32,000 nt of DNA, from positions 123,809 through 155,808 of the forward strand of contig NZ_WNKU01000006.1 of assembly GCF_009720735.1 (NCBI RefSeq), given 5' to 3'. The position numbers and the translations under genes are program-made. Position 1 is the stretch's first letter, and every line of letters begins with the position of its first letter. This document shows positions 6,361 through 31,901 of the stretch, piece after piece. The stretch comes from Heliobacterium mobile. GTDB taxonomy: Bacteria; Bacillota; Desulfitobacteriia; Heliobacteriales; Heliobacteriaceae. Below the pieces are notes generated by a model. The model was not told the origin of the DNA. It did no database searches and saw only the letters and a list, made by a program, of their open reading frames with translations.

Positions 6361-6418
6361 GTTGAACCATTTTTATAACAGGACGGTCTAAACGACTATG
6401 TGGGTTTACAGGAACATA

Positions 6419-6691
6419 CTAGACCTCACCAGACATGCACGAAAATCGTATATTCTTGGGCATCCAAACTTCATACTTATTTTTCGCCTTGCATCTAGGG
6501 CAGACACAGATCATCTCGGCTAAGGCATGGGTTTCATCAGTGACATAGTGGGTGCTGCCAATGTAGATGAGATCGATAGGCTCCGTATTCGGCATCGTAT
6601 CGTTATAACTCTTCCCATTTACGAGTAACTCGAAACGACCACGACAAGCCCGACAAGTCAGAATCACCGGTTTTTGGCTGCTAATAATCAC
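6419..6691 (-). CDS. small zinc-ribbon protein, hypothetical
   Basis: Two CxxC pairs (CRACRG ... CPRCKAK). AAGAGGAGGA abuts the track GTG at 6700, so the second in-frame GTG at 6691, 9 nt downstream of the RBS, is the more plausible start. Confidence 0.6.
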   Translation of the reverse strand: MIISSQKPVILTCRACRGRFELLVNGKSYNDTMPNTEPIDLIYIGSTHYVTDETHALAEMICVCPRCKAKNKYEVWMPKNIRFSCMSGEV

Positions 6692-6899
6692 AAGAACCAC
6701 TCCTCCTCTTTAGCTACCTATGTACTACGTGTAATGACAATGACGCTTTTTAAAGCGAAAAGCGACCATCTCGTAGTCATCGACTAACAAAATGGCCGCT
6801 CTGCCATGCTATCCCTCTAATCACAATACCTTGTACTACTTCTCTTTATAAAATGATCATACACTGATTTTATAATCAATGTCAATCAGTTGAGCAATT

Positions 6900-7088
6900 T
6901 TACTTTCGCTTTCGGGAAAAGTGAGTCTCTGCCCAACCAAATTCCATTGCGGCACATTCTTCATCACAGTTGCCATAGAATATTTTTTTCGTCTCCCGCT
7001 TTTCGCTCCGCTCAAGGTCCGCATGCAATGCAGCTAGCGATTTTGCCAACTTATTTACGGCTTCATTCAGGCTGGACAAAATCCTCAC
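6900..7088 (-). CDS. possible small helical protein, hypothetical
   Basis: 62-aa ORF with a helical, charged N-terminal half (LNEAVNKLAKSLAALHADLERSEKRE). It has a GTG start with poor RBS spacing and lies in an A+T-rich spacer. Confidence 0.25.
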   Translation of the reverse strand: MRILSSLNEAVNKLAKSLAALHADLERSEKRETKKIFYGNCDEECAAMEFGWAETHFSRKRK

Positions 7089-7328
7089 CCCTTTCTTTCA
7101 ATGTGCAAAGTATAATCATTTATATGACAAAACATCAAGTCCCAACTTGCTATTCCCTTGTATAACAGCACTACTAACCTTGCACATGCTGGCTGGTTAG
7201 CTTTTGACATCCAATAGTATGCATATAGAGAAATATATCGTAAAAGTATGTCGAAAAAACAGGAAATTTTTGAGTTAGATCGAACATTCGAAATATAGGA
7301 AAAGACTTTGCAAAGGAGGACACCCCCT

Positions 7329-8480: not shown

Positions 8481-8495
8481 AAGAGGGGATCGTTG

Positions 8496-8750
8496 ATGAT
8501 AGAAAAGTCCGATATCCTTAAAGAATCTTTAGAGTTGGGCCATGAAGGAGCCGATGTGAAGCCCGATGCCCTTGAGCCCTTATCCCTGTCAAAAGAAGAG
8601 TTGGCCAACATCAAGGAGATCGCCGGAGAACATACCCCCCAAATCCATGAAACCCATTCGATCTCTTTTGGTTGCTCCTGTGGCGGAAGCTGTTACCTCG
8701 TCTGCCGCAACAGTTGTGCCTCAGCATGCTTATCCTCATACAGTCACTGA
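8496..8750 (+). CDS. Cys-rich candidate RiPP precursor peptide (SCIFF/ranthipeptide-like core)
   Basis: 84 aa, starting 16 nt after the maturase stop, with AAGAGGGGA as RBS. The leader is acidic and about 57 aa long. The C-terminal core is GCSCGGSCYLVCRNSCASACLSSYSH, with six Cys spaced C-x-C-x3-C-x3-C-x3-C-x3-C (8673-8729). Confidence 0.7.
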   Translation: MIEKSDILKESLELGHEGADVKPDALEPLSLSKEELANIKEIAGEHTPQIHETHSISFGCSCGGSCYLVCRNSCASACLSSYSH

Positions 8751-8768
8751 AGAAAGCGGGGAATCGAC

Positions 8769-10544: not shown

Positions 10545-10568
10545 TGTGCAGATGGGCGGTGAACGATA

Positions 10569-13154: not shown

Positions 13155-13783
13155 AAAGTGGACGCGAGAAAAAGCCCTCCCTTCTTTCATCATGGTGGGA
13201 TAAGGTGACAACTAAAAAAACCTTCGTTGACGAAACGGTGATGGAAGAATCGGAAGACGCTCCATCGGAAGAACTTGATACCCCGGTTTGCCAAGCTAGC
13301 GAAGCCGAAGATACAAATCCGCTCATGTCCGCCCAAGAAGAATTCCAAGCACGTCTGAGCGATTTTCGCGACTGTTACGAACAGTTATATCGGGGGGTAC
13401 AAGGAGAAGAGGAACTCCTTCGCAATGCGATCGTCGAATGGTCCTATCGGATCGATAAAGAAAAATCTGGTCCCCTATCTCGATACTGGAATCAACTGGT
13501 TCAATCAGAAGGACTCGGCAGCGAACCGAACAAGTGGAATCAGTCCCCTCTGTTTATGCTGCAAAGGCTCGGCGAAACATGGTTAGCCCTCATACAAGAA
13601 TGGGGCGTCCGAAGAGATTCGATCGAAAATCCTGCTCCCTTTTCGATCGACTTGCTCGATAAGTACAGCTTTTTGGGAACGGCTGAACCCAACCAGCCCG
13701 TGTATGTACTCCGTTACGCCTGGTTATTTGGGGACAGGATTATTGAAAAAGGGGAACTGTCAAGAAAAAATCAATCCTTTTGA
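13151..13783 (+). CDS. acidic hypothetical protein, translationally coupled to the NTPase
   Basis: 210 aa. Its ATG overlaps the upstream TGA (ATGA at 13151-13154). It has an acidic, low-complexity N-terminus and no motif I recognise. Confidence 0.65.
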   Translation: MKSGREKKPSLLSSWWDKVTTKKTFVDETVMEESEDAPSEELDTPVCQASEAEDTNPLMSAQEEFQARLSDFRDCYEQLYRGVQGEEELLRNAIVEWSYRIDKEKSGPLSRYWNQLVQSEGLGSEPNKWNQSPLFMLQRLGETWLALIQEWGVRRDSIENPAPFSIDLLDKYSFLGTAEPNQPVYVLRYAWLFGDRIIEKGELSRKNQSF

Positions 13784-17902: not shown

Positions 17903-18263
17903 ACGATATCCCTCAAAACTACACAGAGAGGAAAATTTGATTTGATTCCGCTACGGACGTCTCCCGGGTTGTACCGGCGCTAAAGCGCCGACGCCTAAGG
18001 TCGCCCAGTCCCGCTGCATCAAATCATTTTTTCTGGACAAAAGTTTTGCGCATGGTTAAGGTAAAGTCCTCGACCGATTCGTACCCGTCGACTGAACGCC
18101 TCACGGCGTGTACATCTCGGGCCGATCGACCAGGTCATCTTCCAGGGGTCTTACCTCTTTCGAGGAACCTCGCGATGAATACCCTTTCCCTTGGCTAACG
18201 GTTGGTACAGCCAACCTCCGTTCTGGACTTTCACCCTAGAGTTATTGCCCATTCCAAGCGCAC
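17903..18263 (-). mobile_element. group II intron-like RNA (class C-like domain I), ORF-less and probably truncated
   Basis: The minus strand starts GUGCGC one nt after the T6 run of the upstream terminator. CUCUAGGGUGAAAGUCCAGAAC, then a hairpin, then GUUAGCC parallels what I recall of Oceanobacillus iheyensis group IIC intron domain I (UAUAGGGUGAGAGUCCCGAAC, hairpin, GUUAGCC). GGUGAAAGUCC can pair with the downstream GGACUUUACC. I found no reverse transcriptase ORF and no convincing domain V. Confidence 0.45.
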
Positions 18264-18264: not shown

Positions 18265-18300
18265 AAAAAAGAGCCGCCAGGTTTTACACCTGACGGCTAC
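18265..18300 (-). terminator. intrinsic terminator of the SLOG-TM/RyR operon
   Basis: On the minus strand, agccgtcagg-tgtaaaa-cctggcggct forms a 10-bp stem (one G-U pair) followed by tttttt, 8 nt after the RyR gene stop. Confidence 0.85.
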
Positions 18301-18308: not shown

Positions 18309-18599
18309 TCATTCGTCAACTTTTACAATCCGATATCCAAGCGCTACAATCGCCTTCAACGTCTGCATCGCCGCATTTCGATCATAGTCTTTTTCCGACT
18401 CTGGTAATTCTTCGTATGCAATTAGACAGGGATGAAGTTTCTTTTGGTCGTCACGCTGTTCACCGTATTGCCAGCCATCCTTGAACCGCTGTGTGGCCCA
18501 AACATCATGGGCATGTTTTGACAGCAACTCGGTTAATTTCAGGATTTCATTCGTCAGTTGTACTTTCGACGTGTCCATCGGCTTTGGAATATAAGTCAT
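18309..18599 (-). CDS. stand-alone RyR (ryanodine-receptor repeat) domain protein
   Basis: 96 aa with AAGGAG as RBS. HDVWATQRFKDGWQYGEQRDDQKKLHPCLIAYEELPESEKDYDRNAAMQTLKAIVALGYRI matches the bacterial RyR-domain consensus as I recall it. Confidence 0.8.
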   Translation of the reverse strand: MTYIPKPMDTSKVQLTNEILKLTELLSKHAHDVWATQRFKDGWQYGEQRDDQKKLHPCLIAYEELPESEKDYDRNAAMQTLKAIVALGYRIVKVDE

Positions 18600-18689
18600 C
18601 TTTTTTCTCCTTACTACGGAATTTATCGACAGTCAACTACTATTTTTATTATAACACAACTTTAGCATTATCGTTATCCAACGTCTACG

Positions 18690-20465
18690 TTACGCCCGGC
18701 GGACTTGTAGAGGCCGAGCCCGGTGCAGGTGAACCCAGTCACCGTTTTCAGCCAAGGCTTCTTTCCCTAGTTCTAGGACGAGTCCTTGAGCCGCTGAATA
18801 ATCGGAGGCGACTAGACAACGGCTCATTTCTGTGGCGGCCCGCTGAAAGATTTCACTCATTACCTCGTACTGCTTGGACTGATCTGAGAGTGCTGATTTT
18901 TCCGCGTAGCCCTCAAATGTAGCCGCGATGGCCGGAGTAAACCCCATGAATACGATCAGCAAGTGATGTAGATCGACTCCAAAGGCATGTTTGAAGTCTT
19001 CATATAAGTGATGCATATAGGGGTCGAGTGCAACAACGATGACCGATAAAGCGAGGCCGCCTACAAAAAAAATCTCAATCCACCGATCGAACCCTTCCAA
19101 TTTATGACGATCCCGCTTTGACGCTTTTTCAAAGAAATTGCATTGGTTCTGGATCCAATGGGTATTCAGTAATTCAAGTAATTTTCTCTCTTTCGATGTA
19201 GAAAGGGCATCCCTCTCCATCGTCATCTGCTGGTTGCCATCAGCGCACCCGGCAGCAATGTTGGCGAATCGAATGGCATTTCGAAGCCAAAGCAGTTCGT
19301 TTCGCTGTTTTCGAAGGTAGTGGTCAGCCACTTCATTGTCTAAACCTGCCAGATGCCAGAAAAACTGAATCCGCAATCCCTCCGCGAGGGCACGATAATC
19401 CAGATGTTTGTTCTGGTAGTTTTTCGAGTTAGCCCGACGGTAGATAAGATAGGCGATAAAAAGTGTGAGTGGGTATAGTCCCAGCATAAGCCGGGATTCC
19501 AGGAACATATGAGCATACAACTCAAAAAATAAAACGGCGGCTAAACCAAGAGCGAACAACTGTCCAATGGCACTACGGCGAATATCAGCAAAATGGATAG
19601 CCATCATATCGGATAAGGCGTAGTGATCTAACAATGATCGTGCCCTATCGGTTAGGACACTCTCCTCTTTGCCAGGCCAGAGCCATTCGCGACTTTGGCA
19701 GATGGCTTCGCTTTTTTTGGGGATTAGTTCTACGGCATCTGCGTTATACGCCTCGATCTGTTCAAATATCCGTCGTTCCGAATTCGCCGACGCTGCTCCT
19801 TTCTTCCCATCGCCGGGAAAAAGAGTAACCAACTGAAAAGGCTTCCCTTTAGGGGTTGGATTGCTATCCCGAGGCGTAACGATGTGGTACACCATCCCTG
19901 TATCAATAGGATCGAGCAAGTTCCGTGGAGGGGCATATGGCTCACCGATGCCTTGGCACTTGAACCGGACGACATGAGCGGATCCTCCGATGCGTCCGTT
20001 ATCTACACCATCCCAAAGAGCGATCAAGATATGGCTATGGCGAACGATGTAGGCCCCAATACGGGCGTAGCGTAGCGCGTCACTGTTCGGCTCGCCTTCC
20101 CTAACAGATAAAGGAATAGAAACAACTCTGTCCGCTTTTTTGACCAGTTCCAGATACTCGGCCCGTGACGACTCCGTGTCCGTTTCGGTAACATTGGCTT
20201 CCCCCTCTTCTAAAAGGGGGACTATTAATCGGCATCCGCAATCTAAGGCAACTTGAGCGACTAATCGGTCTGCTCCTTCCGCTAGCGGCGAAAGAAGGAC
20301 AACTGGTGTATGGGGATAGCTCGATCGCAGATCATTAAAGATTTTTCGTACCTGCTCTTCCAGTGACAAACGGTCGCCATTTCGCAGGTCCCGATGACCC
20401 GTCACACCAATAACAATAGGGATCAAAGGTTCGTTCCTGTCGTAAGTGCCCGTTGCTTTAATCAC
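18690..20465 (-). CDS. SLOG-like (YpsA/LOG/DprA-type Rossmannoid) domain fused to four TM helices (SLATT-like 2TM pairs)
   Basis: GAAGGAGG lies 7 nt upstream of GTG 20465; the track start at 20519 has no RBS. The N-terminal motifs are IVIGVTGHRDL, LSPLAEGADRLVAQVAL and ILIALWDG..GGSAHVV. There are two TM hairpins: LFALGLAAVLFFELY with LGLYPLTLFIAYLIY, and IFFVGGLALSVIVVAL with LLIVFMGFTPAIAATF. Confidence 0.6.
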   Translation of the reverse strand: MIKATGTYDRNEPLIPIVIGVTGHRDLRNGDRLSLEEQVRKIFNDLRSSYPHTPVVLLSPLAEGADRLVAQVALDCGCRLIVPLLEEGEANVTETDTESSRAEYLELVKKADRVVSIPLSVREGEPNSDALRYARIGAYIVRHSHILIALWDGVDNGRIGGSAHVVRFKCQGIGEPYAPPRNLLDPIDTGMVYHIVTPRDSNPTPKGKPFQLVTLFPGDGKKGAASANSERRIFEQIEAYNADAVELIPKKSEAICQSREWLWPGKEESVLTDRARSLLDHYALSDMMAIHFADIRRSAIGQLFALGLAAVLFFELYAHMFLESRLMLGLYPLTLFIAYLIYRRANSKNYQNKHLDYRALAEGLRIQFFWHLAGLDNEVADHYLRKQRNELLWLRNAIRFANIAAGCADGNQQMTMERDALSTSKERKLLELLNTHWIQNQCNFFEKASKRDRHKLEGFDRWIEIFFVGGLALSVIVVALDPYMHHLYEDFKHAFGVDLHHLLIVFMGFTPAIAATFEGYAEKSALSDQSKQYEVMSEIFQRAATEMSRCLVASDYSAAQGLVLELGKEALAENGDWVHLHRARPLQVRRA

Positions 20466-20583
20466 TGATTGGCCTCCTTCAGTGAAACATAGGGGTAGTA
20501 CAATATTTATGTACACCATTCTTTATTTCTTTGAACATTCCTTCAAAAGCAAGCCTATTTTTAGCATACTTACCTAAATAGAA

Positions 20584-22833
20584 CTAAATCGGCTGAAAGA
20601 GGATACCTAGTCGTCCTTTTACCTCTGAAATCGTTACACTGACTATATCGAAACGGTCTATACCGGCCGAACGCAGACATTGAACATTAACCGATCGTTC
20701 TTCCGGTGTCGCTTGAATAGCCGACAACAGGTCTTCATCATTTGTAACAGCTTTGCCATCATAACCGATGATGATGTCGTTTACCCGGATGCCGCTCTTT
20801 TCCGCGATTCCACCTTCGACGAGCTCTGAAACAAAAATTCCTCCGTCCACACCCAGCGTCTCGATTTGAGCCGTAAAGAGTTCCGATGCTTTGATGTAGG
20901 GCTTAAAGTCATCGGAAACCATTTGCTCGCATCGGGACAGTGCACCTAGAGACTCATAGATACGTCCTTCTCGCCTAAGCAGATAAGCTTTTCGCAGAAT
21001 CCCGTCGAACCGATCGGTAGGGCGAACTATTAAGGCATCAAAATCAATCGGTTCAGAAGGATTTTGATAGGGCATAGAGGTAATTAAGTGTTTCAATCGG
21101 GGCAAGTCGGGATGGTTTATGTTCCTAGAGACAAAAAAGTTTAGTGTCTCCAAGGCAATGCCGCCGAAATACTCGTCTTCGAAGTATTTGGTACCGCCGT
21201 CTGCCGAAAGGGTCAATAACCGTTTTACCTTCCGGTCCTTATGTTTAATAAAGATGTCTTTCGCCAAATCGAATTGGTTTGTAAAGAGGTACGCCACACC
21301 GAGATTTAAAATAGCTACATCTTCCTCTGGATTGGCGTCAAAAGCTAATTGTGCCGCATGAAGAGCCTGCGAGGGGTCTCCATCGAGCAAAAAGAAGGTT
21401 GTCGCCGAAACATACAATTGACCGATGTTTTCGTAGTCACCGATCGCCTTAAAGTTTTCTTCACTCTTGATTAGCGCTTCACGGGCCTCTGAAATATGGT
21501 CAATGGCCATATAGGCTTCACCCAATTGCCGGTACAGAATGCCGTTTAGCTGCCTAACTTGAGCTCGGACAGGAGGGTCCTCTGCATCTGCCAGCCCCCC
21601 CAAGAGATCGATGCTGTTTTGAAAGCATTCGACCGATTTATTCAACTCGTTCAGGTGAAGCCATCGTTCCCCCAAACGTTCGTAATTCGCCACCCGTTCC
21701 AATTTGGCGATTATATCGTCTTCATTACGGTCAATGAGTTGATCTAATGTCTTTATATTGGCATCCAAGATTTCGGTGACGATGGGACTTACTTGAGGAA
21801 AGCGACGTAGCCGATCAGGAATGTCAAAAGTCAACTGGTTAATCCGGTCCAAAGCTAGATTCTTTTGAAATTCTGCCCTTTCCTTCTCACTGTCAGCGAT
21901 AGACTTCTGCAAAAGTGCTTCTACTTTTTGCTCGTCCGCCAGGATGCGGGAGGCCTGCTCTTTTTCTCGAGCTTCTTCAGCGGTCAACCTAGCCTCCTTT
22001 TCCTTCCCTTCTGCATCTTCAGCATGCTTACGCATAAGCATTTCCTGAAGCTTGGCCCGTTCACTCTCCGAAAGTGCTTGTTCCGCCATCATACGGGCTT
22101 CCCGCTCATTTTCTCGGGCCTTTTCCGCCTCAATCCGAAGATTGTCCGTGTATTGCCACTGCCGATAACTGTACAATCCGAAAAGCAATAAAAGGGCCAT
22201 AACGGAAGCCGCAGTAATTTCCCACTGCCGGATTTGCCGCTCTCGGTGCCGCTGTTTCAAGTCGTCAAAGGTGCAACCAATAATGGGCGCTATCAGGCGA
22301 AGCTTTTCTGTCTTCAGCAGGGCCATTGATTTTCGAAAACTTGTAGCCCTAATATCGGCGGCCAGCGGTTCAATTTCTACGGAAGTACGGTTGACAGCAC
22401 CATTATCGTCGATAAAGGTCCGTTCGATGTTACAAAGTTGCTTAGGAAAGGATTCTGCAGGTTCTCCCTCAATAAGCAAGGCAAGAATTTGTTTTTCCCG
22501 GCCCAATTCCATAAAGATTTGAATCTCCCTGGCGATCCAATCTGATTGGGGCGTTCGCGGGGAGCAGATAACGATCAAAAACCTGGATTGATGCAAGGCC
22601 TCCCGGATGCTGTCACTGAGGTTGTTCGTTGTGGGGAGTTCATCACGGTCTCGGAAAACCCGCTCAAGCCGTCTCGGCACCCCCTTTTCTACTAGTATTC
22701 GGGGAACTTTATACGTTTCAAGAGCGGTATGCAGCTGTTCGGCGATTCTCTTATCTGGCTGGGTGTGCCGATAACTTATGAACGCGTCATAGCGAAAATC
22801 GATGATTTCTCGCAATCCCTTCCCCTCCCCCAT
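20584..22833 (-). CDS. TIR - single TM - coiled coil - TPR-like - PDZ protein
   Basis: The TIR signature is YDAFISYRH...FLIVICSPRTPQSDWIAREIQIF...LLIEGEP. A basic KQRHRERQIRQW stretch precedes the TM ITAASVMALLLLFGLYSY. An E/K/R-rich coiled coil and helical repeats follow. The C-terminal region is PDZ-like (GIFVSELVEGGIAEKSGIRVNDIIIGYDGKAV). The start is uncertain: ATG 22833 has a weak RBS. Confidence 0.85.
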   Translation of the reverse strand: MGEGKGLREIIDFRYDAFISYRHTQPDKRIAEQLHTALETYKVPRILVEKGVPRRLERVFRDRDELPTTNNLSDSIREALHQSRFLIVICSPRTPQSDWIAREIQIFMELGREKQILALLIEGEPAESFPKQLCNIERTFIDDNGAVNRTSVEIEPLAADIRATSFRKSMALLKTEKLRLIAPIIGCTFDDLKQRHRERQIRQWEITAASVMALLLLFGLYSYRQWQYTDNLRIEAEKARENEREARMMAEQALSESERAKLQEMLMRKHAEDAEGKEKEARLTAEEAREKEQASRILADEQKVEALLQKSIADSEKERAEFQKNLALDRINQLTFDIPDRLRRFPQVSPIVTEILDANIKTLDQLIDRNEDDIIAKLERVANYERLGERWLHLNELNKSVECFQNSIDLLGGLADAEDPPVRAQVRQLNGILYRQLGEAYMAIDHISEAREALIKSEENFKAIGDYENIGQLYVSATTFFLLDGDPSQALHAAQLAFDANPEEDVAILNLGVAYLFTNQFDLAKDIFIKHKDRKVKRLLTLSADGGTKYFEDEYFGGIALETLNFFVSRNINHPDLPRLKHLITSMPYQNPSEPIDFDALIVRPTDRFDGILRKAYLLRREGRIYESLGALSRCEQMVSDDFKPYIKASELFTAQIETLGVDGGIFVSELVEGGIAEKSGIRVNDIIIGYDGKAVTNDEDLLSAIQATPEERSVNVQCLRSAGIDRFDIVSVTISEVKGRLGILFQPI

Positions 22834-22974
22834 AAGCCCGTTAACGAATAATCAATAACCTCTTCTTTATACATATGTAACTTTATATTTATACCTATAG
22901 GAGGATATTTTTTACTTCCAGCGAATAATTCCTGCAAGATCAAGCTGGAATTTATGAAATTGGAGGGAGCGCCT

Positions 22975-23922
22975 GTGAAACAAAAACAGTTGGTTGGACT
23001 ACGTTCGACTGAGTACGAACACCCCTTTGATCGGAACGCGCTGGAAGCACTAAGAGGAACACCTGGGTTGGAAACGATCGTAAAAAAGTTCAACCATTAT
23101 GGTATCGAAAAACTTTTGAAAATCCGCTATACCGGCAGCAATATTAAGGTAGATGATCGTAACTATCCCGAACTCTATGATACGTTACGGCAAGTCTGCG
23201 CCATTATCGATCTGCCCGAAATACCCGATCTGTACATCCAGTGGGGGTACGAGATCAACGCCTTTACAGCCGGTGTGGAAAAACCGATCATCGTGCTGAA
23301 TTCAAGCTGTATTGATTTTTTGTCCAAAGAAGAGTTGATGTTCATCATCGGCCACGAGGCCGGCCACATCAAGAGCCAGCATGTCCTATACCATCAAATC
23401 GCTGAGGTCTTACCAATTATGGGCGACATCATAGGCAATGCCACTCTTGGCATTGGAAGCCTAATTTCTACCGGTGCCGAGATCGCCTTGTTGAACTGGC
23501 AGCGTATGTCCGAATTTACCGCCGACCGGGCCGGCCTGCTAGCTTGCCAGGATGCCAACATAGCTACCAAAGCCATGGTCAAGCTGGCCGGTGTACCGCA
23601 AAAATATTTCAACTCTATCAATGTTGAGGAATTCATTGCTCAGGCGAAAGAGTTTGAAGGCTATGACTATGATACGCTAGACAAGATCGTCAAGCTGATG
23701 AGCACGATGTGGATGAGCCACCCCTGGACGGTCATGCGCGGCGCCGAGTTTTTCAAGTGGATCGATACGGGCGAGTATGACCGTTTACTCAGTGCTAATC
23801 GGCTAGAAAACCTTATCGGAAACAGTAATGCGAGTGGTACCGGTAAAATGGCCTGCCCGAACTGCGGCGCAACCCTGAAAGGTGTTGAAAAGTTCTGTCC
23901 CTATTGTGGGAATAAGATATAA
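22975..23922 (+). CDS. M48-family zinc metallopeptidase with C-terminal zinc ribbon
   Basis: It has HEAGH (HExxH) and a downstream EFTADR third ligand. The C-terminus is CPNCGATLKGVEKFCPYCGNKI. GGAGGGAG lies 5 nt upstream of in-frame GTG 22975; the track ATG is at 22954. Confidence 0.8.
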   Translation: MKQKQLVGLRSTEYEHPFDRNALEALRGTPGLETIVKKFNHYGIEKLLKIRYTGSNIKVDDRNYPELYDTLRQVCAIIDLPEIPDLYIQWGYEINAFTAGVEKPIIVLNSSCIDFLSKEELMFIIGHEAGHIKSQHVLYHQIAEVLPIMGDIIGNATLGIGSLISTGAEIALLNWQRMSEFTADRAGLLACQDANIATKAMVKLAGVPQKYFNSINVEEFIAQAKEFEGYDYDTLDKIVKLMSTMWMSHPWTVMRGAEFFKWIDTGEYDRLLSANRLENLIGNSNASGTGKMACPNCGATLKGVEKFCPYCGNKI

Positions 23923-24042: not shown

Positions 24043-24501
24043 TTATTCAAACCGAGTCCCACAGTTTGGGCAAAACTTCCCCTCTCTACGTTCTTCACCA
24101 CAGTTTTGACAGAAACGGGTTGCCTTTTGGCCTATACCCTTTTGCAAAGCAGAGAATAGATCCTCCACTGCTTTATGGCAAAAACCTCCTCCCATAGCTT
24201 GAAAGGAAAGTAGCAGTCGAATCGACAAATTCACCTCGGAACAATTTCCCTGCGGCATCACCTTGGCATCCAACCTGTACGACGTAGTGGAATCGCTCAG
24301 TGCATTGAACATCTTTAAGGCGTTTTTGTATATTGCATAGGCCTCAATCGTACCGTTCGCTGGGTTCTTCTTCTCTATCTGCCACCACATATTCATGCCC
24401 ACCAGTTGGAGTGGTGTCGTTTCGATCGTTTGGATCAATTGTTCAAAGGCTTGTTGTGGTGATTCGGGAAATTGGCGTTTCTCTTCGTAATGAGCGGACA
24501 T
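24043..24501 (-). CDS. hypothetical protein with C-terminal zinc ribbon
   Basis: AGGGAGGA lies 7 nt upstream of ATG 24501; the track start at 24627 has no RBS. 152 aa, ending CQNCGEERREGKFCPNCGTRFE. Confidence 0.7.
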   Translation of the reverse strand: MSAHYEEKRQFPESPQQAFEQLIQTIETTPLQLVGMNMWWQIEKKNPANGTIEAYAIYKNALKMFNALSDSTTSYRLDAKVMPQGNCSEVNLSIRLLLSFQAMGGGFCHKAVEDLFSALQKGIGQKATRFCQNCGEERREGKFCPNCGTRFE

Positions 24502-24712
24502 ATTAAATTCCTCCCTATTTGCTGCTATATTTTTATAGTATTTAGAACGCAGCGTACTTCTCAAGACAATCAATAGCAGAGCCAACGTCTTCCGCATAAT
24601 CAACAGCTCTATCATTGACGCGCACAATTATATATCTTTCGTCAAGTCTAGCCTCTACGGTTGATTAATTGCCTCTTGAGTTTTCCCTTCGAATCGAAAT
24701 GTTCTAGTTAGT

Positions 24713-25837
24713 TCAATGAGTTGCATTAAAATCTGATGTATTTTCATCAAAAGAAATTTGAGAAGATTTTATTTTCCAAAGTGTATTGGCATTCTCATTG
24801 ATTATTTTATCTATAATCGGTTTTGCTTCCGGTATATGCCCTAATCTAGCGGGTATTTCTTGCATTAGCCGGTCGCTTGCTTCTAAAGCCATTTCTTTCT
24901 GTTGCTCAGCCACCACTCTCTCCTTTTCTGCCAACAATGCTCCCTCACATGCTCGTTTTGCTTGTATATTGGCCATACTCCTCTGTTCTTCCGCCATTAG
25001 AGCCTGCTGCACAGTCACTTGACGCTGTCTCTCTACTTCCATTGTAGCAGCTTGAGCTTCATTTTCTCGAATTATTGCCTGATCTCTAGCTTTCTCTGCC
25101 TTTTCTTTTTTCTCTACTGCTTCTAACGTCGCATTCTCTGCTTCTAACCTTTTGCCTTCGGCGTAGCGGTACTGCATAATGCTTGCCGTTCCAAAAATAA
25201 ACAAGCACAAGATTGAACCTAGAGCAAGCATTGTAACGTTTTTTACGAATCTTTCTCTGTGTCTCTGCCGAAGATTATCAAAGGTACAGTTTAATAACTT
25301 AGCGAGAAGACGCAATTTCTCTTCTTTTAACATTTGCAATGATTCAGAAATGCTATTCGATTCGTTCGTAATGTTAGCAGCTAATGGCTCAGCAATTTCT
25401 AATCGTTCGTATTCCTGACCACCGATCCGCACCCAATGCCGACGATGCTCCCGAAGAAGATCAGGGAAGGATTCTTCTGGTTTTCCTTCCACAAGCAACG
25501 TCAGAATCCGGTTTGAACGACCCATTTCTCGAAATAATCGAATTTCCTCCTTCACTCGTCGATCCTTGGGGGTTGCTGGCGAGCAAACAACGATAAGAAA
25601 GTTCGCACACTTCAGTGCTTGAGAGATATCCAATGGAGCTATTTCTTTACTTTCATATCCCAAATATGCAGGCATATATACTTTCACTTTTTCCGATAAG
25701 CCTTGCTTCACCAAGGCATTGGGTACCCGGTACGAATTTAATGCGTTTACTAGATGATTTGCTATGGAAAGGTCCAGCCTTCGCTGACAACAGGTGATAA
25801 CCGCATCGTATCGAAGGTCCTTTTCTTCGGAGGTCAT
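24713..25837 (-). CDS. degenerate TIR-like domain - TM - coiled-coil protein
   Basis: AAAGGAGGAG serves as RBS. It is a paralogue of the two other TIR proteins (FLIVVCSPATP, ILTLLVEGKPEESFP, EKLRLLAKLLNCTFDNLRQRHRER). The N-terminal signature reads YDAVITCCQ instead of YDAFISYRH. The TM is VTMLALGSILCLFIFGTASIM. Confidence 0.75.
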   Translation of the reverse strand: MTSEEKDLRYDAVITCCQRRLDLSIANHLVNALNSYRVPNALVKQGLSEKVKVYMPAYLGYESKEIAPLDISQALKCANFLIVVCSPATPKDRRVKEEIRLFREMGRSNRILTLLVEGKPEESFPDLLREHRRHWVRIGGQEYERLEIAEPLAANITNESNSISESLQMLKEEKLRLLAKLLNCTFDNLRQRHRERFVKNVTMLALGSILCLFIFGTASIMQYRYAEGKRLEAENATLEAVEKKEKAEKARDQAIIRENEAQAATMEVERQRQVTVQQALMAEEQRSMANIQAKRACEGALLAEKERVVAEQQKEMALEASDRLMQEIPARLGHIPEAKPIIDKIINENANTLWKIKSSQISFDENTSDFNATH

Positions 25838-25858: not shown

Positions 25859-26515
25859 CTATTGCTTGTTGAGATTATAGGTTTCTTGTAGTTTTCTCCA
25901 TTTTAGAAAAGCCTTGTTTGCACTTTCTAAGTCCCCTAGTTCACGGGATATTTCTTCCGTTTTTTTCCATACAATATGTAGAAATCGTTGTGCTTCGATA
26001 TTTGTGGTGTCCTTTGCCAGTTCTTCGGCAATAACTAGTTCTTTTTCGTACCATTTGCGTGCATCTAAAAACTCACCTTCAGCGTAAGTAAAATCGCCAT
26101 AACTTTCGTAGAGAATGGCTAGGTCCCTTAGCGCCTTTGCATTCGTTTGGTCCTTTGCCAGTTCTTCACGTATCGCAAGAGCCTTCTCATACCACCCTCG
26201 GGCTAGCGACAGGTCCCCTTGGGCTACCGACACTTTCCCTAGGTTATTGTAACTGATTGATAAGTCCCGTTGCGCCTCTGCATTCATTTGGTCTTTTGCC
26301 AGTTCTACCGAAATCGCAAGAGCCTTCTCATACCACCCTCGGGCTCCCGATAGGTCCTCTCTGGCTACCGCCACTTCTCCTAGTCTTTCGTAACTGATCA
26401 ATAAGTCCCTCTGTGCCTGCGTATTTGTCTGGTCTTTTGCCAGTTCTTCAGCAATCTCAAGAGCCTTCTCATACCATATCCGGGCTCCCCACAGGTCCCC
26501 TTGGGCTATCGCCAC
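25859..26515 (-). CDS. TPR-like 47-aa-repeat protein; in-frame continuation of the 26531-28516 ORF
   Basis: 218-aa ORF with a GTG start and no clear RBS. It begins in the middle of a repeat unit (AIAQGDLWGARIWYEKAL...) and carries about 4 more repeat units. Confidence 0.6.
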   Translation of the reverse strand: MAIAQGDLWGARIWYEKALEIAEELAKDQTNTQAQRDLLISYERLGEVAVAREDLSGARGWYEKALAISVELAKDQMNAEAQRDLSISYNNLGKVSVAQGDLSLARGWYEKALAIREELAKDQTNAKALRDLAILYESYGDFTYAEGEFLDARKWYEKELVIAEELAKDTTNIEAQRFLHIVWKKTEEISRELGDLESANKAFLKWRKLQETYNLNKQ

Positions 26516-27400
26516 AACACCTATTCTTTCTTAACTGATCGATAAGTCCCGCTGTGCCTGTGTATTTGTCCGGTCTTTCGCCAGTTCTTCAGCAATCGTA
26601 AGAGCCTTCTCATACCATATCCGGGCTCCCGAAAGGTCCCCTTGGGCTATCGCCACTTCTCCTAGTCTTTCGTAACAGAGCGATAAGTACCGCTGCGCCT
26701 CTGCATTCATCCGGTCTTTCGCCAGTTCTTCAGCAATCGTAAGAGCCTTCTCATACCATATCCGGGCTCCCGACAAGTCACCTTGGGCTACCGCCACTTC
26801 TCCTATGTTATTGTAACTGATTGATAAGCCCCGTTGCGCCTCTGCATTCGTTTGGTCTTTTGCCAGTTCTTCACGTATCGCAAGAGCCTTCTCATACCAT
26901 ATCCGGGCTCCCGACAGGTCCCCTTGGGCTACCGACACTTCCCCTAGTCTATCGTAACTGAACGATAAATCCCGCTGCGCCTGCGCATTCGTAAGGTCTT
27001 TTGACAGTTCTTCAGTTATCGCAAGAGCCTTCTCATACCATATCCGGGCTCCCGACAGGTCCCCTTGGGCTACCGACACTTCCCCTAGTCTATCGTAACT
27101 GATCGATAAGTTCCGCTGCGCCTGCTCATTCGTCCGATCTTTCGCCAGTTCTTCAGCAATCGCAAGAGCCTTCTCAAACCATATCCGGGCTCCCGGTAGG
27201 TCCCCTTGGGTTATCGCCACGTCCCCTAGTCTTTCGTAACTGACCGATAAATCCCGCTGCGCCTGCGCATTCGTCCGATCTTTTCCCAGTTCCTCATTTA
27301 TCACAAGACCCTTCTCAAATTCTGCTTTAGCCCTTACTACATCACCCAATATAATCCACGTGTCTCCCATACGCGAAAAGTTTACACTCTTTTCACGCAA
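25900..27400 (-). repeat. tandem 141-nt (47-codon) coding repeats, about 10 units
   Basis: The 52-nt string ccagttcttcagcaatcgtaagagccttctcataccatatccgggctcccga occurs at 26581 and again at 26722, exactly 141 nt apart. The same period is seen throughout. The boundaries are approximate. Confidence 0.8.
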
Positions 27401-28516
27401 CACTTTCGGGTCCGATAGCTCTCTGCCTACATCCATAATCCTATCCAGCATCCCTAAGTTTCCTGCCAGCACGTCCACCAAAATCGTTTTGGTACCTGCT
27501 ATGTTTTGAAGCTTATCAGGAACATCATAAGTTAAGCTACGGATAACTTGCATAGCAAGGTTTTTCTGCTCTACGCTCTGCTTGCGCCGTTCTTCGGCAA
27601 GGGCATATAGCTTTTCTGAGGTCGCCCGTTGCGACTCAGCATCCTGTTTAGCTTGCTCCGTTTCGTTTTTATATTTTTCCGCCTCTTGTTCCAGTCGACG
27701 CGCTTCTTCATAGCGTGCTTCAGACCAGCGCTGCATTTCTCCGGCTTTCTGATACTGCTCGACAGCAATCTGCTCCGCTTCTTGTGCTTCAGCTAATTTG
27801 ATTGTGGCGACTCGACTTGATTCTTCTGCCTGCCTTCGTAAATCGTTGCTGTAAAAACCATAGATTGTAGCTATGGTTAAGGCTGCCGTTAGGGCTAAGC
27901 CTCTCTGCCAATACAGTCGCTGTTGGTGATAGTGCCAAAGTTCTTCCTTCTGAACACCTGCCAGTAGTGTAATTAGTTCCAACTTCTGTTCTTTCAGGTT
28001 GTTCAAAATTTGGCTCGTATCTTTTCCACGCAGGTCGGTTACAGGTAGTTTCCACTTCCCGTTAATCGACTCTTTTAAATTGCTATCGTCTTCCCGTGCC
28101 GCCGACCCTTCAAGATGATCCAATAGCGCTAATAGAGGAAGCGGGAACGAATCCCTTGGTTCTCCTTCGATAATCACCGGCAAGATACGCTGGGCTCTCC
28201 CTAACTCAATAAAAGTTTCTATCTCCCTGGCCACCCATTCCGACTCGGGGGTGCTTCGGGAGCACAATACAATGAGAAATTGCGATTGAGAAAGAGCGTA
28301 CGCAATGTCATCGCTAAGGTTGCTGGAACTGGGTAGTTCTGCTAGGTCCAAAAATATCCGAGTTATCGGCCATGCTCCCTTTTTGACCAGTGCCGAAGGA
28401 ACTTTGTACGTCTCCAAAAGCCGGTGCAGGCGGGCTGCGATAATCTTATCTGGAAAGCCGTGGCGGTAACTGATAAATGCATTGTAATGATAATCACTTT
28501 TAGGATTAAAAGTCAC
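26531..28516 (-). CDS. TIR - TM - coiled coil - TPR-like 47-aa repeat protein (ends at a TAA inside a repeat)
   Basis: GGGGGGAG lies 5 nt upstream of GTG 28516. The TIR signature is YNAFISYRH...FLIVLCSRSTPESEWVAREIETF...IIEGEP. The TM is LALTAALTIATIYGFY, followed by an E/K/Q-rich coiled coil. About 6 repeats of ...AQRDLSxSYERLGEVAVAQGDLSGARIWYEKALAIAEELAKDxTN follow. Confidence 0.85.
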   Translation of the reverse strand: MTFNPKSDYHYNAFISYRHGFPDKIIAARLHRLLETYKVPSALVKKGAWPITRIFLDLAELPSSSNLSDDIAYALSQSQFLIVLCSRSTPESEWVAREIETFIELGRAQRILPVIIEGEPRDSFPLPLLALLDHLEGSAAREDDSNLKESINGKWKLPVTDLRGKDTSQILNNLKEQKLELITLLAGVQKEELWHYHQQRLYWQRGLALTAALTIATIYGFYSNDLRRQAEESSRVATIKLAEAQEAEQIAVEQYQKAGEMQRWSEARYEEARRLEQEAEKYKNETEQAKQDAESQRATSEKLYALAEERRKQSVEQKNLAMQVIRSLTYDVPDKLQNIAGTKTILVDVLAGNLGMLDRIMDVGRELSDPKVLREKSVNFSRMGDTWIILGDVVRAKAEFEKGLVINEELGKDRTNAQAQRDLSVSYERLGDVAITQGDLPGARIWFEKALAIAEELAKDRTNEQAQRNLSISYDRLGEVSVAQGDLSGARIWYEKALAITEELSKDLTNAQAQRDLSFSYDRLGEVSVAQGDLSGARIWYEKALAIREELAKDQTNAEAQRGLSISYNNIGEVAVAQGDLSGARIWYEKALTIAEELAKDRMNAEAQRYLSLCYERLGEVAIAQGDLSGARIWYEKALTIAEELAKDRTNTQAQRDLSIS

Positions 28517-29308: not shown

Positions 29309-29340
29309 TTTCCAAGGTTGAAGTAAAGGAGGAAGTGGCA

Positions 29341-29853
29341 ATGGGGCTTTATGAGACAACGAAAATCGTCCCTGTCTCGCTCTCGGACCTAACTCCAGTG
29401 GCGAACGACGTTTTAGATTATTTTCGTGCCCAAGAGTATGATGTCAACGGTGAAGGGACTCCAACTCGGGGATGGCATATCAGTATCAGTAAGGGTGGGA
29501 TATTTAAAGCCGTCCTTGGCATGAAGACAGCACTGAATATTGAAATTGAGCCTACCCGTACAGGAACATCCCTTAAGGCGGGCATTGGTATATTCGGGAT
29601 GCAGGCCATTCCCACAGTGATCGCGCTTTTCGTGGCTTGGCCCGTCTTGCTCACTCAGATCTGGGGCCTTGTCAAAAATGCTGATTTGGATGAAGAGGCC
29701 ATTAATTGTGCCGAAAAAAGCCTATTGAGCCAAGCTACACATCATTCTGCCAGTAAAGCACAAGTTGACCCATCTCAAACTTTTTGTACTAATTGTGGTC
29801 ATCGACTTCAATCGGGAGATAAGTTCTGCCCTCAATGTGGTACCCGTCGGTAG
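29341..29853 (+). CDS. membrane protein with C-terminal zinc ribbon, hypothetical
   Basis: AAGGAGGA lies 7 nt upstream of ATG 29341; the track GTG at 29335 is too close to the RBS. It has one TM (IPTVIALFVAWPVLLTQIWGLV) and ends CTNCGHRLQSGDKFCPQCGTRR. Confidence 0.7.
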   Translation: MGLYETTKIVPVSLSDLTPVANDVLDYFRAQEYDVNGEGTPTRGWHISISKGGIFKAVLGMKTALNIEIEPTRTGTSLKAGIGIFGMQAIPTVIALFVAWPVLLTQIWGLVKNADLDEEAINCAEKSLLSQATHHSASKAQVDPSQTFCTNCGHRLQSGDKFCPQCGTRR

Positions 29854-30020: not shown

Positions 30021-31901
30021 TTGCATAGGTTAAAGAACTCGGAGGGAGAAGGACCATTGAAAAAAACTAGCAAACGACAAGGATTATCGTTTTGGGAAAT
30101 GTGGGATGACTATCAATGGTTGTTATTAGGCTTTCTTACAGTCATAGCAATGGTTTTGGGGATTACCGGATTTATTCAAATGGCGGCCCTATCAGAGGCC
30201 TCATTGCATGTTTCGACTATAAGCGATGCTCTTTATCAAACCCTTTTGTTATTTACTTTTGAAGGTGTGGCCACAAATCATGTACCACTTTCTCTTGATA
30301 TTTCCCGTTGGTTGACCGTCTGCGTGGCCGGATTTGCAGTCGTAAAAACATTCCTTACTATCACGCGAAAAGAATATGGTATTTTTCGGTTGCTCTTTTG
30401 CCGTGATCACATCGTTATCTGCGGGCTTGGACGAAAAGGCACATTGCTTATTGAGGATTTACTTTCGTCAACTGAACGTAAAAACCGTCATATCACTGTC
30501 ATCGAGTTGAATAACGATAATGACCAACTAGTGTCCTATCGAAAGAAAGGAATCACTATTATTCAAGGCAGCGCAACAGATCCAATAACCTTGCAAAAAG
30601 CTGGTATCTCTAAGGCCGCTTATCTGTTTATTTTGACAAATAACGATGATACCAATATTGAAATTGCCTTCAAAGCCTTTCAAACCGTTACCTCTTATGC
30701 GGTTAACGAAATCATGCCGAAGGTCAAAGATGGCATAATAAGTTCCCGCGATCTGAGAAAGAGGAAAAGCAATCTAAAATGTTATGCTCATGTCAGTAAT
30801 TCCATCATGTTTGATTTGTTCCGGCAGCACAAGTTATTTAACCACAACCACCGGTCTTTCGAGGGGAAACTTTTCAATTTATATGAAGCAAGTTCCCGTC
30901 AAGTTTTTAACCAATATCCCCCTGATGAACTTTGTGGTGGCCTATGCCATCTTCCCGATAGTGCTCCTATACACATCGTGATTGTGGGCTTTGTGACGAT
31001 AGGCCGGACTCTACTCCTTCACATCCTCCGGCAAGCCCACTACGGAAATTTAAAGAGAACAAGGATTACGATTATCGATAGCGCAGCAGACATCGAATCG
31101 TCACGGTTTCGGGGAGCTTATCCCGGTGTAGAACAAGTGGCAGAAGTACATTTTCTGAGCAAGGATCCACAAAGCTTAAATATGCATGATATTCTCCAAT
31201 TAAACGATATATGTCCGGTCCCCATCCTTTATATTAGCCTTGATGATGATACACTGACTTATCTTACAGCGTACCGACTAGCCGCACAAATTAATCACGT
31301 CGGCGATGCCCCTGTCAATGGCCTACAAATCGTGGCATGCATTCCAGAAATTACGCCTTTATATCCGCTGATGAAAGGAAAAGAACAGCTGACCACCTAT
31401 GACTCTGGACTTCAGCTCCCTGATCAAATGCAGATTTTTCATATGATCAGTGAATCCTGTAACTGGAAAGTGATTGTCCAGGAAGACTTGGACGAGCATG
31501 CCGAAAAACTACATCAAGATTATCTAAATACACGGACAGAGCTGACATCAGAAGAAATTTCTATGTCTTGGGACGAGCTGTCAGAAGAGTACCGTAACTC
31601 AAACCGCTATGCAGCGGATCATTATTCCATCAAACAACGGGCGATTCTCGCTGCTTTCCAAAATCTGCGTGATAAGGAAAAGGGCCTTCAACCACCTTTT
31701 GTGGACGATAATCTGGTAGAACGGCTGGCCCGAATGGAACATCAGCGCTGGACGGCGGAGAAGCTATTATCCGGATGGACCTACGGCCCCAAGCGGGATG
31801 ACGGAAAAAAGAAAAATCCCAATCTTGTCGATTGGGATCGGCTAGATGAGCAAGTTAAACTTTATAACCTAGAAAATGCGAGAAAACTATTTCGTCGATA
31901 A
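30021..31901 (+). CDS. 2TM channel-like domain - TrkA-N/RCK Rossmann domain(s) - C-terminal RyR domain protein
   Basis: Two TM helices (LLLGFLTVIAMVLGITGFI and WLTVCVAGFAVVKTFLTI) flank a pore-helix-like ALYQTLLLFTFEGVATN. IVICGLGRKG (GxGxxG) with ...GSATDP...ILTNNDDTNIE is TrkA-N-like, and IVIVGFVTIGR marks a second Rossmann-like domain. The C-terminus (MEHQRWTAEKLLSGWTYGPKRDDGKKKNPNLVDWDRLDEQVKLYN) is RyR-like. The true start may be TTG 30057 or ATG 30099. Confidence 0.75.
   Translation: MHRLKNSEGEGPLKKTSKRQGLSFWEMWDDYQWLLLGFLTVIAMVLGITGFIQMAALSEASLHVSTISDALYQTLLLFTFEGVATNHVPLSLDISRWLTVCVAGFAVVKTFLTITRKEYGIFRLLFCRDHIVICGLGRKGTLLIEDLLSSTERKNRHITVIELNNDNDQLVSYRKKGITIIQGSATDPITLQKAGISKAAYLFILTNNDDTNIEIAFKAFQTVTSYAVNEIMPKVKDGIISSRDLRKRKSNLKCYAHVSNSIMFDLFRQHKLFNHNHRSFEGKLFNLYEASSRQVFNQYPPDELCGGLCHLPDSAPIHIVIVGFVTIGRTLLLHILRQAHYGNLKRTRITIIDSAADIESSRFRGAYPGVEQVAEVHFLSKDPQSLNMHDILQLNDICPVPILYISLDDDTLTYLTAYRLAAQINHVGDAPVNGLQIVACIPEITPLYPLMKGKEQLTTYDSGLQLPDQMQIFHMISESCNWKVIVQEDLDEHAEKLHQDYLNTRTELTSEEISMSWDELSEEYRNSNRYAADHYSIKQRAILAAFQNLRDKEKGLQPPFVDDNLVERLARMEHQRWTAEKLLSGWTYGPKRDDGKKKNPNLVDWDRLDEQVKLYNLENARKLFRR

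Follow-up and report, generated by a model that had tools for sequence, protein, structure and literature searches.

We analyzed a 32,000-nucleotide stretch of DNA (the window) and found on its minus strand three adjacent genes, designated g1, g2, and g3, which code for a TIR protein, a SLOG domain protein with four transmembrane helices, and a stand-alone RyR domain, respectively (Table 1). Genes of these kinds are recurrently linked across phyla, and on balance it appears probable that the set forms a Thoeris-like TIR second-messenger system combining a membrane effector with a built-in regulator of the signal. The window originates from Heliobacillus mobilis, the product of g2 being 100% identical to locus GJ688_07590. 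A sequence-only reading of the window had proposed a pathway of this type, in which a TIR-made signal is sensed by the SLOG domain of a membrane effector. The domains, the SLOG fold, and the TIR glutamate that it invoked were all found, as was linkage of the genes in other genomes, and the signal, its binding, the membrane damage, and the immune role are discussed below as predictions.

Organization of the gene set

The open reading frame (ORF) of g2 spans positions 18690 to 20519 of the minus strand, with a likely GTG start at position 20465, 7 nucleotides (nt) past a GGAGG sequence. Given this start, the spacers are of 118 nt between g1 and g2 and of 90 nt between g2 and g3, and the protein contains 591 residues, one fewer than had been counted. 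Scanning of the minus strand revealed a sole strong terminator-like site with a T run, at positions 18298 to 18272, which refines the location (18265 to 18300) initially assigned to the terminator that follows the set. No terminator was found between g1, g2, and g3; the three other minus-strand matches in this range are weak and located inside the g2 coding sequence. The ORF and terminator scans therefore agree with the sequence-only description of three co-directional minus-strand genes with gaps of 118 and 90 nt and no internal terminator. Since the spacer between g2 and g3 contains a perfect match to an extended -10 element (Table 1), g3 may also be transcribed from its own promoter, which is a caveat on transcription of the set as a single operon. 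Chance ORFs were ruled out, as all three genes have strong domain or family support.

The g2 protein combines a SLOG domain with a membrane region

No direct match to g2 was found in Pfam, NCBIfam, PADLOC, or the PDB sequences searched with phmmer, and a profile search of the PDB sequences was also empty. In UniRef, the identical GJ688_07590 is named "SMODS and SLOG-associating 2TM effector domain" protein. An AlphaFold2 model was obtained from 33 homologues with a predicted local distance difference test (pLDDT) score of 86 and a predicted template modeling (pTM) score of 0.87. Comparison of this model with the PDB by Foldseek gave YpsA (2nx2) as the best match (E = 8.7e-5; template modeling [TM] score of 0.60 on the target), and the best matches (2nx2, 8zva, 2iz7, 3uqz, 1rcu, and 7uxs) all belong to the SLOG superfamily. 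The matched SLOG proteins comprise YpsA, ShosA, the molybdenum cofactor (Moco)-carrier protein, DprA, TM1055, the SLOG domain of ThsA, and TRPM2. The structure of the ThsA SLOG domain with bound 3'cADPR (cADPR, cyclic ADP-ribose) is among them (7uxs; E = 0.1). The family alignment contains three invariant motifs in this domain, GxTGHRD, LAEGAD, and ALWDG..GGT.

Model secondary structure and hydropathy place four hydrophobic helices in two hairpins in the second part of the protein, which ends in a conserved helix, LGxEALxENGDWxxxHR. When the 33 family members were scanned singly, matches were obtained with DUF4231 for 22, with SLATT_3 for 9 (best E = 2.3e-6), and with SLATT_1 for 8. The Pfam family YAcAr (PF10686), a member of the SLOG superfamily, matched 10 of the 33 (best E = 0.0014), the g2 protein of the window giving no match. 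The latter is also below the thresholds of the SLATT profiles, being 38 to 47% identical over its full length to the members that match. The structural model thus confirms the assignment of g2 as a SLOG protein with four transmembrane helices, as had been read from the sequence, and Pfam supports SLATT membership at the level of the family.

When 1.84 billion cluster representatives were searched with a profile of the family, 3,665 of them matched at E<=1e-30 and 10,883 matched at E<=1e-3, and nearly all of the best 150 matches were full length. The relatives belong to Bacillota, Acidobacteriota, Nitrospirota, Ignavibacteriota, Bacteroidota, Chloroflexota, Planctomycetota, Verrucomicrobiota, several proteobacterial classes, and other phyla. 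Only two marginal matches were detected among the 2.9 million viral contigs of IMG/VR, indicating that the family is cellular rather than viral.

The g1 protein contains a TIR domain and a candidate catalytic glutamate

The TIR domain of g1 was identified by the Pfam models TIR_2 (E = 1.7e-11; 45 bits for a cutoff of 28) and ThsB_TIR (E = 1.9e-11; 44.7 bits for a cutoff of 21.2), both covering residues 18 to 125. In two plant TIRs, AtTIR (3jrn) and Roq1 (7jlv), the residue aligned with Glu-103 of g1 (in the sequence SDWIAREIQIF) is the Glu of an SxWCxxEL motif, which we take to be the catalytic residue. The profile matches and this alignment support the TIR signature and the candidate catalytic Glu noted in the sequence-only reading. 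The ThsB models of PADLOC matched g1 weakly (E = 0.002 and 0.013).

The TIR domain is followed by a hydrophobic segment with a borderline Kyte-Doolittle maximum of 1.55 and then by a highly charged coiled coil; the 374-residue paralogue of g1 encoded nearby has a clear transmembrane helix at the equivalent place (score of 2.16). The TPR region gave weak Pfam matches. The PDZ domain matched PDZ_6 (E = 3.7e-10; residues 667 to 720), PDZ_2 (E = 4.7e-7), and NCBIfam models of the DegP/HtrA type. Since the TIR domain must reach NAD+, it would face the cytoplasm. If the hydrophobic segment is a true transmembrane helix, the coiled coil, TPR, and PDZ regions would be located outside the cytoplasm, in a topology resembling that of Toll-like receptors.

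The g3 protein is a stand-alone RyR domain

As noted in the sequence-only reading, g3 codes for a lone RyR domain of 96 residues. It matches model positions 1 to 90 of the 91 positions of Pfam RyR (PF02026) with a score of 119 bits (E = 9.6e-35; cutoff of 27.4). The protein is similar to the RyR protein of Bacteroides thetaiotaomicron (3nrt; E = 1.3e-32) and to Repeat12 of RyR1 to RyR3 (about 1e-20 per repeat). No PADLOC match was found for g2 or g3.

Phage RyR-domain proteins have been reported to cleave 2'/3'cADPR or to sequester it with nanomolar affinity (PMC13232231, Lopez Rivera et al.). The cleaving protein, RyDEP, acts as a glycosidase through a dyad of H75 and D117, its pocket also containing W78 and H100; homology to RyR Repeat12 and a homodimeric form have been reported for it (PMC13232231). 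The g3 protein and RyDEP are both small stand-alone proteins of family PF02026. Residues H31, W34, H56, and D73 of g3 are invariant in nine orthologues, and their spacings (+3, +25, and +42) match those of the four ligand-binding or catalytic residues of RyDEP (H75, W78, H100, and D117), the equivalence being based on spacing and motif rather than on an alignment with RyDEP. These phage proteins provide experimental backing for the proposal that the RyR domain acts as a nucleotide-binding or regulatory subunit, the role of g3 itself being predicted. A search of phage sequences with g3 returned 257 records, all below 60% identity. In contrast to phage-encoded immune-evasion genes, g3 is chromosomal and forms an operon with a cellular effector gene, a location that would imply regulation of immunity rather than its evasion.

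RyR domains were also observed in two other contexts, namely, an N-terminal fusion to TPR-S and adenylate/guanylate cyclase domains (positions 5977 to 8313 of locus L083; L numbers designate the sampled loci) and a small RyR gene adjoining a gene for a TCAD9/TPR-S protein (positions 975 to 3329 of L084). RyR domains are thus also present in the NTPase-centered conflict systems of Kaur et al. 2020.

Linkage of the three genes in other genomes

Gene linkage was analyzed in 80 genomic loci around g2 homologues by calling ORFs in six frames and counting partners within 6 kb. TIR and RyR genes were detected with our own models, built from Pfam-verified seeds, and 10 of 10 sampled matches to the TIR model passed the gathering score of Pfam TIR_2. 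The TIR sequence of the window, used as a phmmer query, recovered TIR genes in only 4 of the 80 loci. This was an artifact of sensitivity, since the model derived from Pfam-verified neighbors recovered them in 33 loci, in about 25 of which the TIR gene was directly adjacent to the g2 homologue. RyR genes were present in 14 loci, both partners in 8, and either partner in 39. The densities of TIR genes were 3.45 per 10 kb within 500 bp of g2 and 0.14 to 0.21 at distances of 0.5 to 6.5 kb; the corresponding values for RyR genes were 1.73 and 0 to 0.1. Both partners were therefore 15 to 25 times denser in the immediate vicinity of g2 than further out. Co-occurrence of the genes in other genomes, which the sequence-only reading had set as a test of its proposal, was thus observed in several phyla.

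The RyR partners were encoded on the same strand as g2 in all 14 loci and were of two forms, an orthologue of g3 of about 100 residues, 54 to 70% identical across phyla, and a protein of about 600 to 800 residues containing TrkA_N and a C-terminal RyR domain (here RCK-RyR), encoded directly upstream of g2. The TIR partners were of the TIR-TPR, TIR-kinase, SIR2-TIR, TIR-NB-ARC/NACHT-TPR, and TIR-STAND-WD40 types. In an uncultured deltaproteobacterium (L042), genes for an RCK-RyR protein, a small RyR protein, a SLOG-SLATT protein, and a TIR-STAND-WD40 protein are arranged in a row, the SLOG-SLATT gene starting 3 nt past the stop codon of the RyR gene. In an acidobacterium (L050), the RCK-RyR gene overlaps the SLOG-SLATT gene by 4 nt, and a TIR-kinase gene is convergent. 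On a Blastocatellia contig (L017, positions 2793 to 7689), genes for a small RyR protein and a TIR protein are located between two g2 homologues.

A second sample consisted of 80 metagenome loci around small RyR genes, many of which were only 1 to 4 kb long. TIR genes were present in 22 of these loci (17 among the 45 that are 3 kb or longer), and g2-like or SLATT-only genes were present in 8. Two modules were recurrent, one comprising RCK-RyR, small RyR, and TIR genes and the other small RyR, SLATT, and TIR genes; triads of RyR, SLATT-only, and TIR genes were found in L092 and L124. These genes are recurrently but loosely associated, and the set found in the window represents one of their arrangements, not a fixed operon. 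The three-gene operon of the sequence-only reading was retained in this looser sense only, and its particular TIR form, with transmembrane, TPR, and PDZ regions, was not conserved, the architecture and orientation of the TIR genes varying greatly.

A channel-like protein with a RyR domain

The window codes for an additional RyR-domain protein, located on the plus strand (Table 1). Its AlphaFold2 model, of moderate confidence (pLDDT of 68), contains a transmembrane helix, a short helix, a second transmembrane helix, tandem Rossmann domains, and a RyR domain. The best Foldseek matches included the TrkA gating ring and full-length GsuK (both E = 1.5e-9), and MthK, Slo1, and CASTOR were also matched. 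The protein has two transmembrane helices separated by a short helix and tandem RCK domains, to be compared with the RCK-gated channels GsuK, MthK, and Slo1, and a RyR domain, to be compared with the animal ryanodine receptors; it has no GYG-type selectivity filter, the sequence reading LLLFTFEG. The model thus suggests a channel-like, putatively ion-conducting protein bearing a domain of RyR channels.

Homologues of the RCK-RyR gene adjoin g2 homologues in L010, L042, L050 to L052, and L067, and in other phyla they are found directly upstream of g2 homologues. In L162, two TIR genes and an additional RCK-RyR gene border such a homologue. With the RCK-RyR gene and the partners described above, all of the components that are grouped in other genomes are present in the H. 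mobilis island. Fusions of SIR2_2 and TIR domains were observed in two loci, following RCK-RyR and small RyR genes in L155 (positions 3904 to 5262) and beside a g2 homologue in L020 (positions 7854 to 9332).

Other genes of the island

The 9 kb beyond the three genes contain two paralogues of g1, an M48 peptidase gene, genes for zinc-ribbon proteins, and the RCK-RyR gene (Table 1). The 374-residue paralogue scored 23 bits with Pfam TIR_2, under the cutoff of 28, and the Trp of its SxW..E motif is replaced; judging from this degenerate sequence, it may be a noncatalytic partner. The 661-residue paralogue matched the TIR domain of g1 (phmmer E = 1e-46). Its ORF ends within the TPR array, and the next ORF (positions 25859 to 26515, minus strand) carries on the TPR repeats. 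The region from 25859 to 28516 may therefore correspond to one gene broken by a frameshift or to two genes.

Homologues of the M48 peptidase gene occur near g2 homologues in L053 and L035, making it a possible accessory gene of the system. The products of three genes (positions 22954 to 23922, plus strand; 24043 to 24627, minus strand; and 29335 to 29853, plus strand) are otherwise unlike but share a C-terminal double zinc ribbon, CxxCG..KFCPxCG, and M48 and zinc-ribbon genes are also present near the g2 homologue of Pelotomaculum (L053). This common C-terminal end may act as a shared docking tag.

A co-directional trio is located upstream on the plus strand (positions 8769 to 13783) and codes for an HSP70-like protein (8769 to 10544), a HerA-like ATPase (10569 to 13154; PADLOC HerA, E = 1.3e-18), and a 210-residue protein that matched no family. 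This trio may be a separate defense-like module. The upstream HerA-like, HSP70-like, and radical-SAM genes were not assignable to a named defense system, and their matches to viperin models look like generic radical-SAM similarity. Just past the g3 terminator, 95 nt of the minus strand (positions 18070 to 18164) match bacterial 23S rRNA at its 3' end (Rfam RF02541, model positions 2817 to 2912 of 2925; 62.8 bits; E = 1.8e-16); the match is isolated, with no rRNA operon around it. No phage or tRNA genes were seen near the set. An origin from a prophage or mobile element was ruled out, given the absence of tRNA genes and of a GC anomaly and the near absence of the g2 family from viral contigs.

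Table 1. Features of the gene set and of the surrounding island (positions in the window)
Feature	Positions	Strand	Basis or remark
g1, TIR/single transmembrane helix/coiled coil/TPR/PDZ protein	20584..22833	-	ORF of 749 residues; predicted signal-producing sensor
TIR domain of g1, with candidate catalytic Glu E103	22447..22791	-	Residues ~15-129
Hydrophobic segment of g1, probable single transmembrane helix	22168..22224	-	Residues 204-222
PDZ domain of g1	20665..20847	-	Residues 663-723
g2, SLOG protein with four SLATT transmembrane helices	18690..20465	-	591 residues; predicted signal-gated membrane effector
SLOG domain of g2 (YpsA/DprA-like Rossmannoid)	19821..20423	-	Residues ~15-215; Foldseek against PDB
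All-helical membrane region of g2	18723..19649	-	Residues ~273-581; two hairpins of two transmembrane helices, SLATT/DUF4231 type
g3, stand-alone single-repeat RyR domain protein	18309..18599	-	96 residues; predicted binder or hydrolase of a cADPR-type signal
Extended -10 element TGTTATAAT in the g2-g3 spacer	18648..18656	-	Perfect match preceding the g3 ATG by 48 nt; read from the sequence
Intrinsic terminator closing the gene set	18272..18298	-	Stem of 11 pairs, 7 of them GC, then CTTTTTTGG
M48 zincin peptidase with C-terminal zinc ribbon	22954..23922	+	Pfam Peptidase_M48, E = 1.8e-21; divergent from g1
g1 paralogue (TIR-like, transmembrane helix, coiled coil; 374 residues)	24713..25837	-	TIR motifs degenerate; phmmer between TIR paralogues, E = 6e-26
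g1 paralogue (TIR, hydrophobic segment, coiled coil, TPR; 661 residues)	26531..28516	-	Pfam TIR_2, E = 2.3e-10, and TPR
RCK-RyR membrane protein (two transmembrane helices, tandem RCK [TrkA_N], C-terminal RyR)	30021..31901	+	Pfam TrkA_N, E = 4.9e-17; RyR, E = 2.3e-13

Relationship to known systems

Yirmiya et al. 2025 have tabulated 29 putative Thoeris types (10.64898/2025.12.03.692087). These include the combination of TIR and SLATT, validated as type VII Thoeris with a canonical cADPR signal, and a putative type with a "SLOG and 4TM" effector and about five TIRs (Tables S1 and S2). SLATT had been predicted to be a nucleotide-responsive pore-forming effector, and gene neighborhoods combining TIR and SLATT, sometimes with a zincin peptidase, had been described (PMC7159879; PMC9503650). 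The core logic of TIR, SLOG, and SLATT is thus of a known kind, catalogued as an unvalidated type, whereas the systematic linkage of TIR systems to host RyR genes, either small or forming part of the gene for a channel-like protein, appears not to have been described before. RyR domains are absent from the text of 10.64898/2025.12.03.692087, and no paper linking host-encoded RyR genes to TIR, SLOG, or SLATT genes was found in the literature searched. The sequence-only reading had not recognized the combination among named defense systems. This holds, as far as we could see, for the RyR component only, since TIR plus "SLOG and 4TM" is already catalogued.

The putative "SLOG and 4TM" type resembles the set of the window most directly, as a TIR gene adjoins the gene of an effector with a SLOG domain and four transmembrane helices that is predicted to answer the TIR signal. 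Its published effectors include IMG genes 2862473379 and 2691454910. Its TIRs, however, match those analyzed here weakly (best E = 2e-5, to L004). A search with the TIR domain of "Candidatus (Ca.) Nitrospira nitrosa" and inspection of the context of one homologue revealed uninformative neighbors. Type VII Thoeris also associates a TIR with a SLATT-type membrane effector, ThsH, which is thought to oligomerize on its ligand. In contrast, ThsH is annotated as SLATT only and g2 adds an N-terminal SLOG domain and two hairpins; furthermore, the type VII TIRs have no match among the TIRs analyzed here, and a RyR partner has not been described for that type.

In type I Thoeris, composed of the ThsB TIR and of the SIR2-SLOG protein ThsA, a SLOG domain is likewise the receiver of the TIR product, and the SLOG domain of ThsA binds 3'cADPR (10.64898/2025.12.03.692087). 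The output of g2 is a SLATT module with four transmembrane helices rather than SIR2, and the curated ThsA models of PADLOC were unmatched, those for ThsB being matched weakly as indicated above. Type III Thoeris combines several TIRs with a DprA-type SLOG effector; the island similarly contains several TIR paralogues and a SLOG domain of the DprA/YpsA kind, the two effectors being likened by description. Features shared with Thoeris systems in general are a TIR domain with the Glu residue and a SLOG-fold effector encoded 118 nt downstream of g1, in an adjacency to TIR genes that is conserved without being universal.

Proposed pathway and alternative interpretations

In the pathway that we favor, g1 would be a membrane-anchored protein with a cytoplasmic TIR domain, and the regions that follow (coiled coil, TPR, and PDZ) would probably be located outside. 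In response to a trigger, for instance, phage infection or damage to the envelope, the TIR domains would associate and produce from NAD+ a signal derived from ADP-ribose, probably an isomer of cADPR. Binding of the signal to the YpsA/DprA-like SLOG domain of g2 would cause the two SLATT-type hairpins to oligomerize or open, and the resulting depolarization or permeabilization of the membrane would lead to growth arrest or cell death (abortive infection). The g3 protein, a predicted dimer-forming single RyR repeat, would bind the same signal and either sequester it or hydrolyze it to linear ADP-ribose. It would thereby set the threshold of activation and switch the system off, in the manner of the ring nucleases of type III CRISPR systems. 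The comparison with these host enzymes, which remove the second messenger of their own system, is a functional analogy based on the predicted role of g3, as their folds and ligands are unrelated. The RCK-RyR protein would probably be a second effector reading the signal through its own RyR domain. We infer the identity of the signal, its binding by SLOG and RyR domains, the disruption of the membrane, and the immune role from the domain assignments and from the characterized relatives.

Several observations weigh against this pathway. Neither a TIR gene nor a RyR gene was present within 6 kb in 41 of the 80 g2-centered loci, the adjacent TIR genes were more often on the opposite strand (15 cases) than on the same strand (11 cases), and many of the TIR partners were TIR-STAND fusions. 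The TIR domain of such fusions is usually taken to be an NAD-depleting effector. The transmembrane helix of g1 is borderline by hydropathy, g2 itself falls below every Pfam, NCBIfam, and PADLOC threshold, and the TIRs resemble those of validated Thoeris types only weakly. The sequence of g3 does not discriminate between degradation, sequestration, and relay of the signal, and RyDEP homologues of high sequence conservation are not catalytic (PMC13232231). Finally, two "SLOG and 4TM" systems, from Streptomyces sp. GKU 895 and Ca. Nitrospira nitrosa, which are likened to g2 by description only, did not confer defense in E. coli (10.64898/2025.12.03.692087, Table S2). A possible reason is that accessory RyR genes or cognate TIR partners may have been absent.

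Among the alternatives, a different role for g3 is the one that fares best, although we consider it rather unlikely. The protein would act as a co-sensor or adaptor, pairing with the C-terminal repeat of RCK-RyR or docking on g2 to form a Repeat12-like module that gates the effector. Animal Repeat12 is indeed a pseudo-dimer of two repeats, the single-repeat protein of B. thetaiotaomicron has been crystallized, and RyDEP is a homodimer (PMC13232231). Small and large RyR genes were found side by side in 13 of the 80 RyR-centered loci and also in L042. Equivalents of H56 and D73 are often missing from the fused RyR domains (in several of these domains, neither is present) and are retained by the small RyR proteins, which suggests a division of labor; fusion of RyR to other signaling modules, as in L083, is also typical of adaptor or sensor domains. 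However, the large RyR protein of H. mobilis is encoded 11 kb from g3, most of the small RyR genes linked to g2 have no large partner, and sequestration and hydrolysis of the signal are the only demonstrated activities of stand-alone RyR domains (PMC13232231).

Fortuitous co-location of independent systems in a conflict island appears less likely still. According to this interpretation, g1 and its paralogues would be self-contained TIR NADase receptor-effectors and g2 would answer another nucleotide. The at least 15-fold enrichment of TIR and RyR genes within 500 bp of g2, relative to distances of 0.5 to 6.5 kb in the same loci, argues against this possibility, as do the start and stop codons that overlap or are separated by 3 to 12 nt in L042, L050, and L053. 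The same triad recurs with SLATT-only effectors, and both RyR and SLOG are documented binders of TIR products. Independence of the systems would nonetheless account for the g2 homologues, about half of the total, that have no TIR or RyR gene nearby, and for the varied architecture and orientation of the TIR partners, STAND fusions among them. Islands of this type pack unrelated systems, as exemplified by the HerA-like module upstream in the window.

We regard as improbable that the SLOG domain of g2 is an enzyme, acting as a LOG-like N-glycosidase on a nucleotide, and that the membrane region serves only for anchoring or export. In the loops where an active site would be expected, polar residues are invariant (H24, R25, D26, D66, W151, G160, G161, and T162) or nearly so (E63). 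Hydrolases are known within the SLOG superfamily, LOG being one of them, and the possibility that SLOG generates signals is discussed by Kaur et al. 2020. Yet the nearest folds, YpsA, DprA, and the SLOG domain of ThsA, act by binding and not by hydrolysis, fusion to SLATT marks predicted nucleotide-gated pore effectors, and the effector of type VII Thoeris is a SLATT protein. There is equally little to recommend a function other than antiviral, in an envelope-stress, developmental, or kin-conflict module whose extracytoplasmic TPR-PDZ region in g1 would sense cell wall or peptide cues: PDZ domains of the DegP/RseP type, such as that of g1, bind C-terminal peptides in the envelope, the single-transmembrane topology would place the PDZ and TPR regions outside the cell, the neighbors nSTAND1, TCAD9, TPR-S, and DUF4062-NACHT are families of the Kaur et al. 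2020 systems of multicellular bacteria, and the "SLOG and 4TM" systems showed no phage defense, but the bacterial TIR-signal systems characterized to date are all antiviral, phages carry RyR-domain countermeasures (PMC13232231), and the patchy, multiphylum distribution of the g2 family is typical of defense genes.

Significance

ADP-ribose signals made by TIR domains are an immune language common to bacteria, plants, and animals. To our knowledge, the only destroyers of 2'/3'cADPR so far are phage proteins. The host RyR gene, which in many phyla accompanies TIR genes and genes for SLATT-type effectors, is a candidate for a built-in regulator by which bacteria may limit or end these signals. 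The SLOG-4TM family, with its thousands of clusters, would gain a working hypothesis.

A broader proposal, which we make tentatively and for which we see less than an even chance, is that RyR domains are native to bacterial TIR signaling, the small proteins buffering or clearing the messenger and the C-terminal domain of RCK-RyR acting as its receptor. Gating of a RyR-domain channel by a TIR product would then be a prokaryotic antecedent of the cADPR/ryanodine receptor axis of animals, and the H. mobilis island would hold all of its parts, namely, three TIR paralogues, a SLOG-SLATT protein, a small RyR protein, and RCK-RyR. The RCK-RyR partner also bears on the old question of whether Repeat12 of the ryanodine receptor senses cADPR, which might be approached with this simple bacterial protein.

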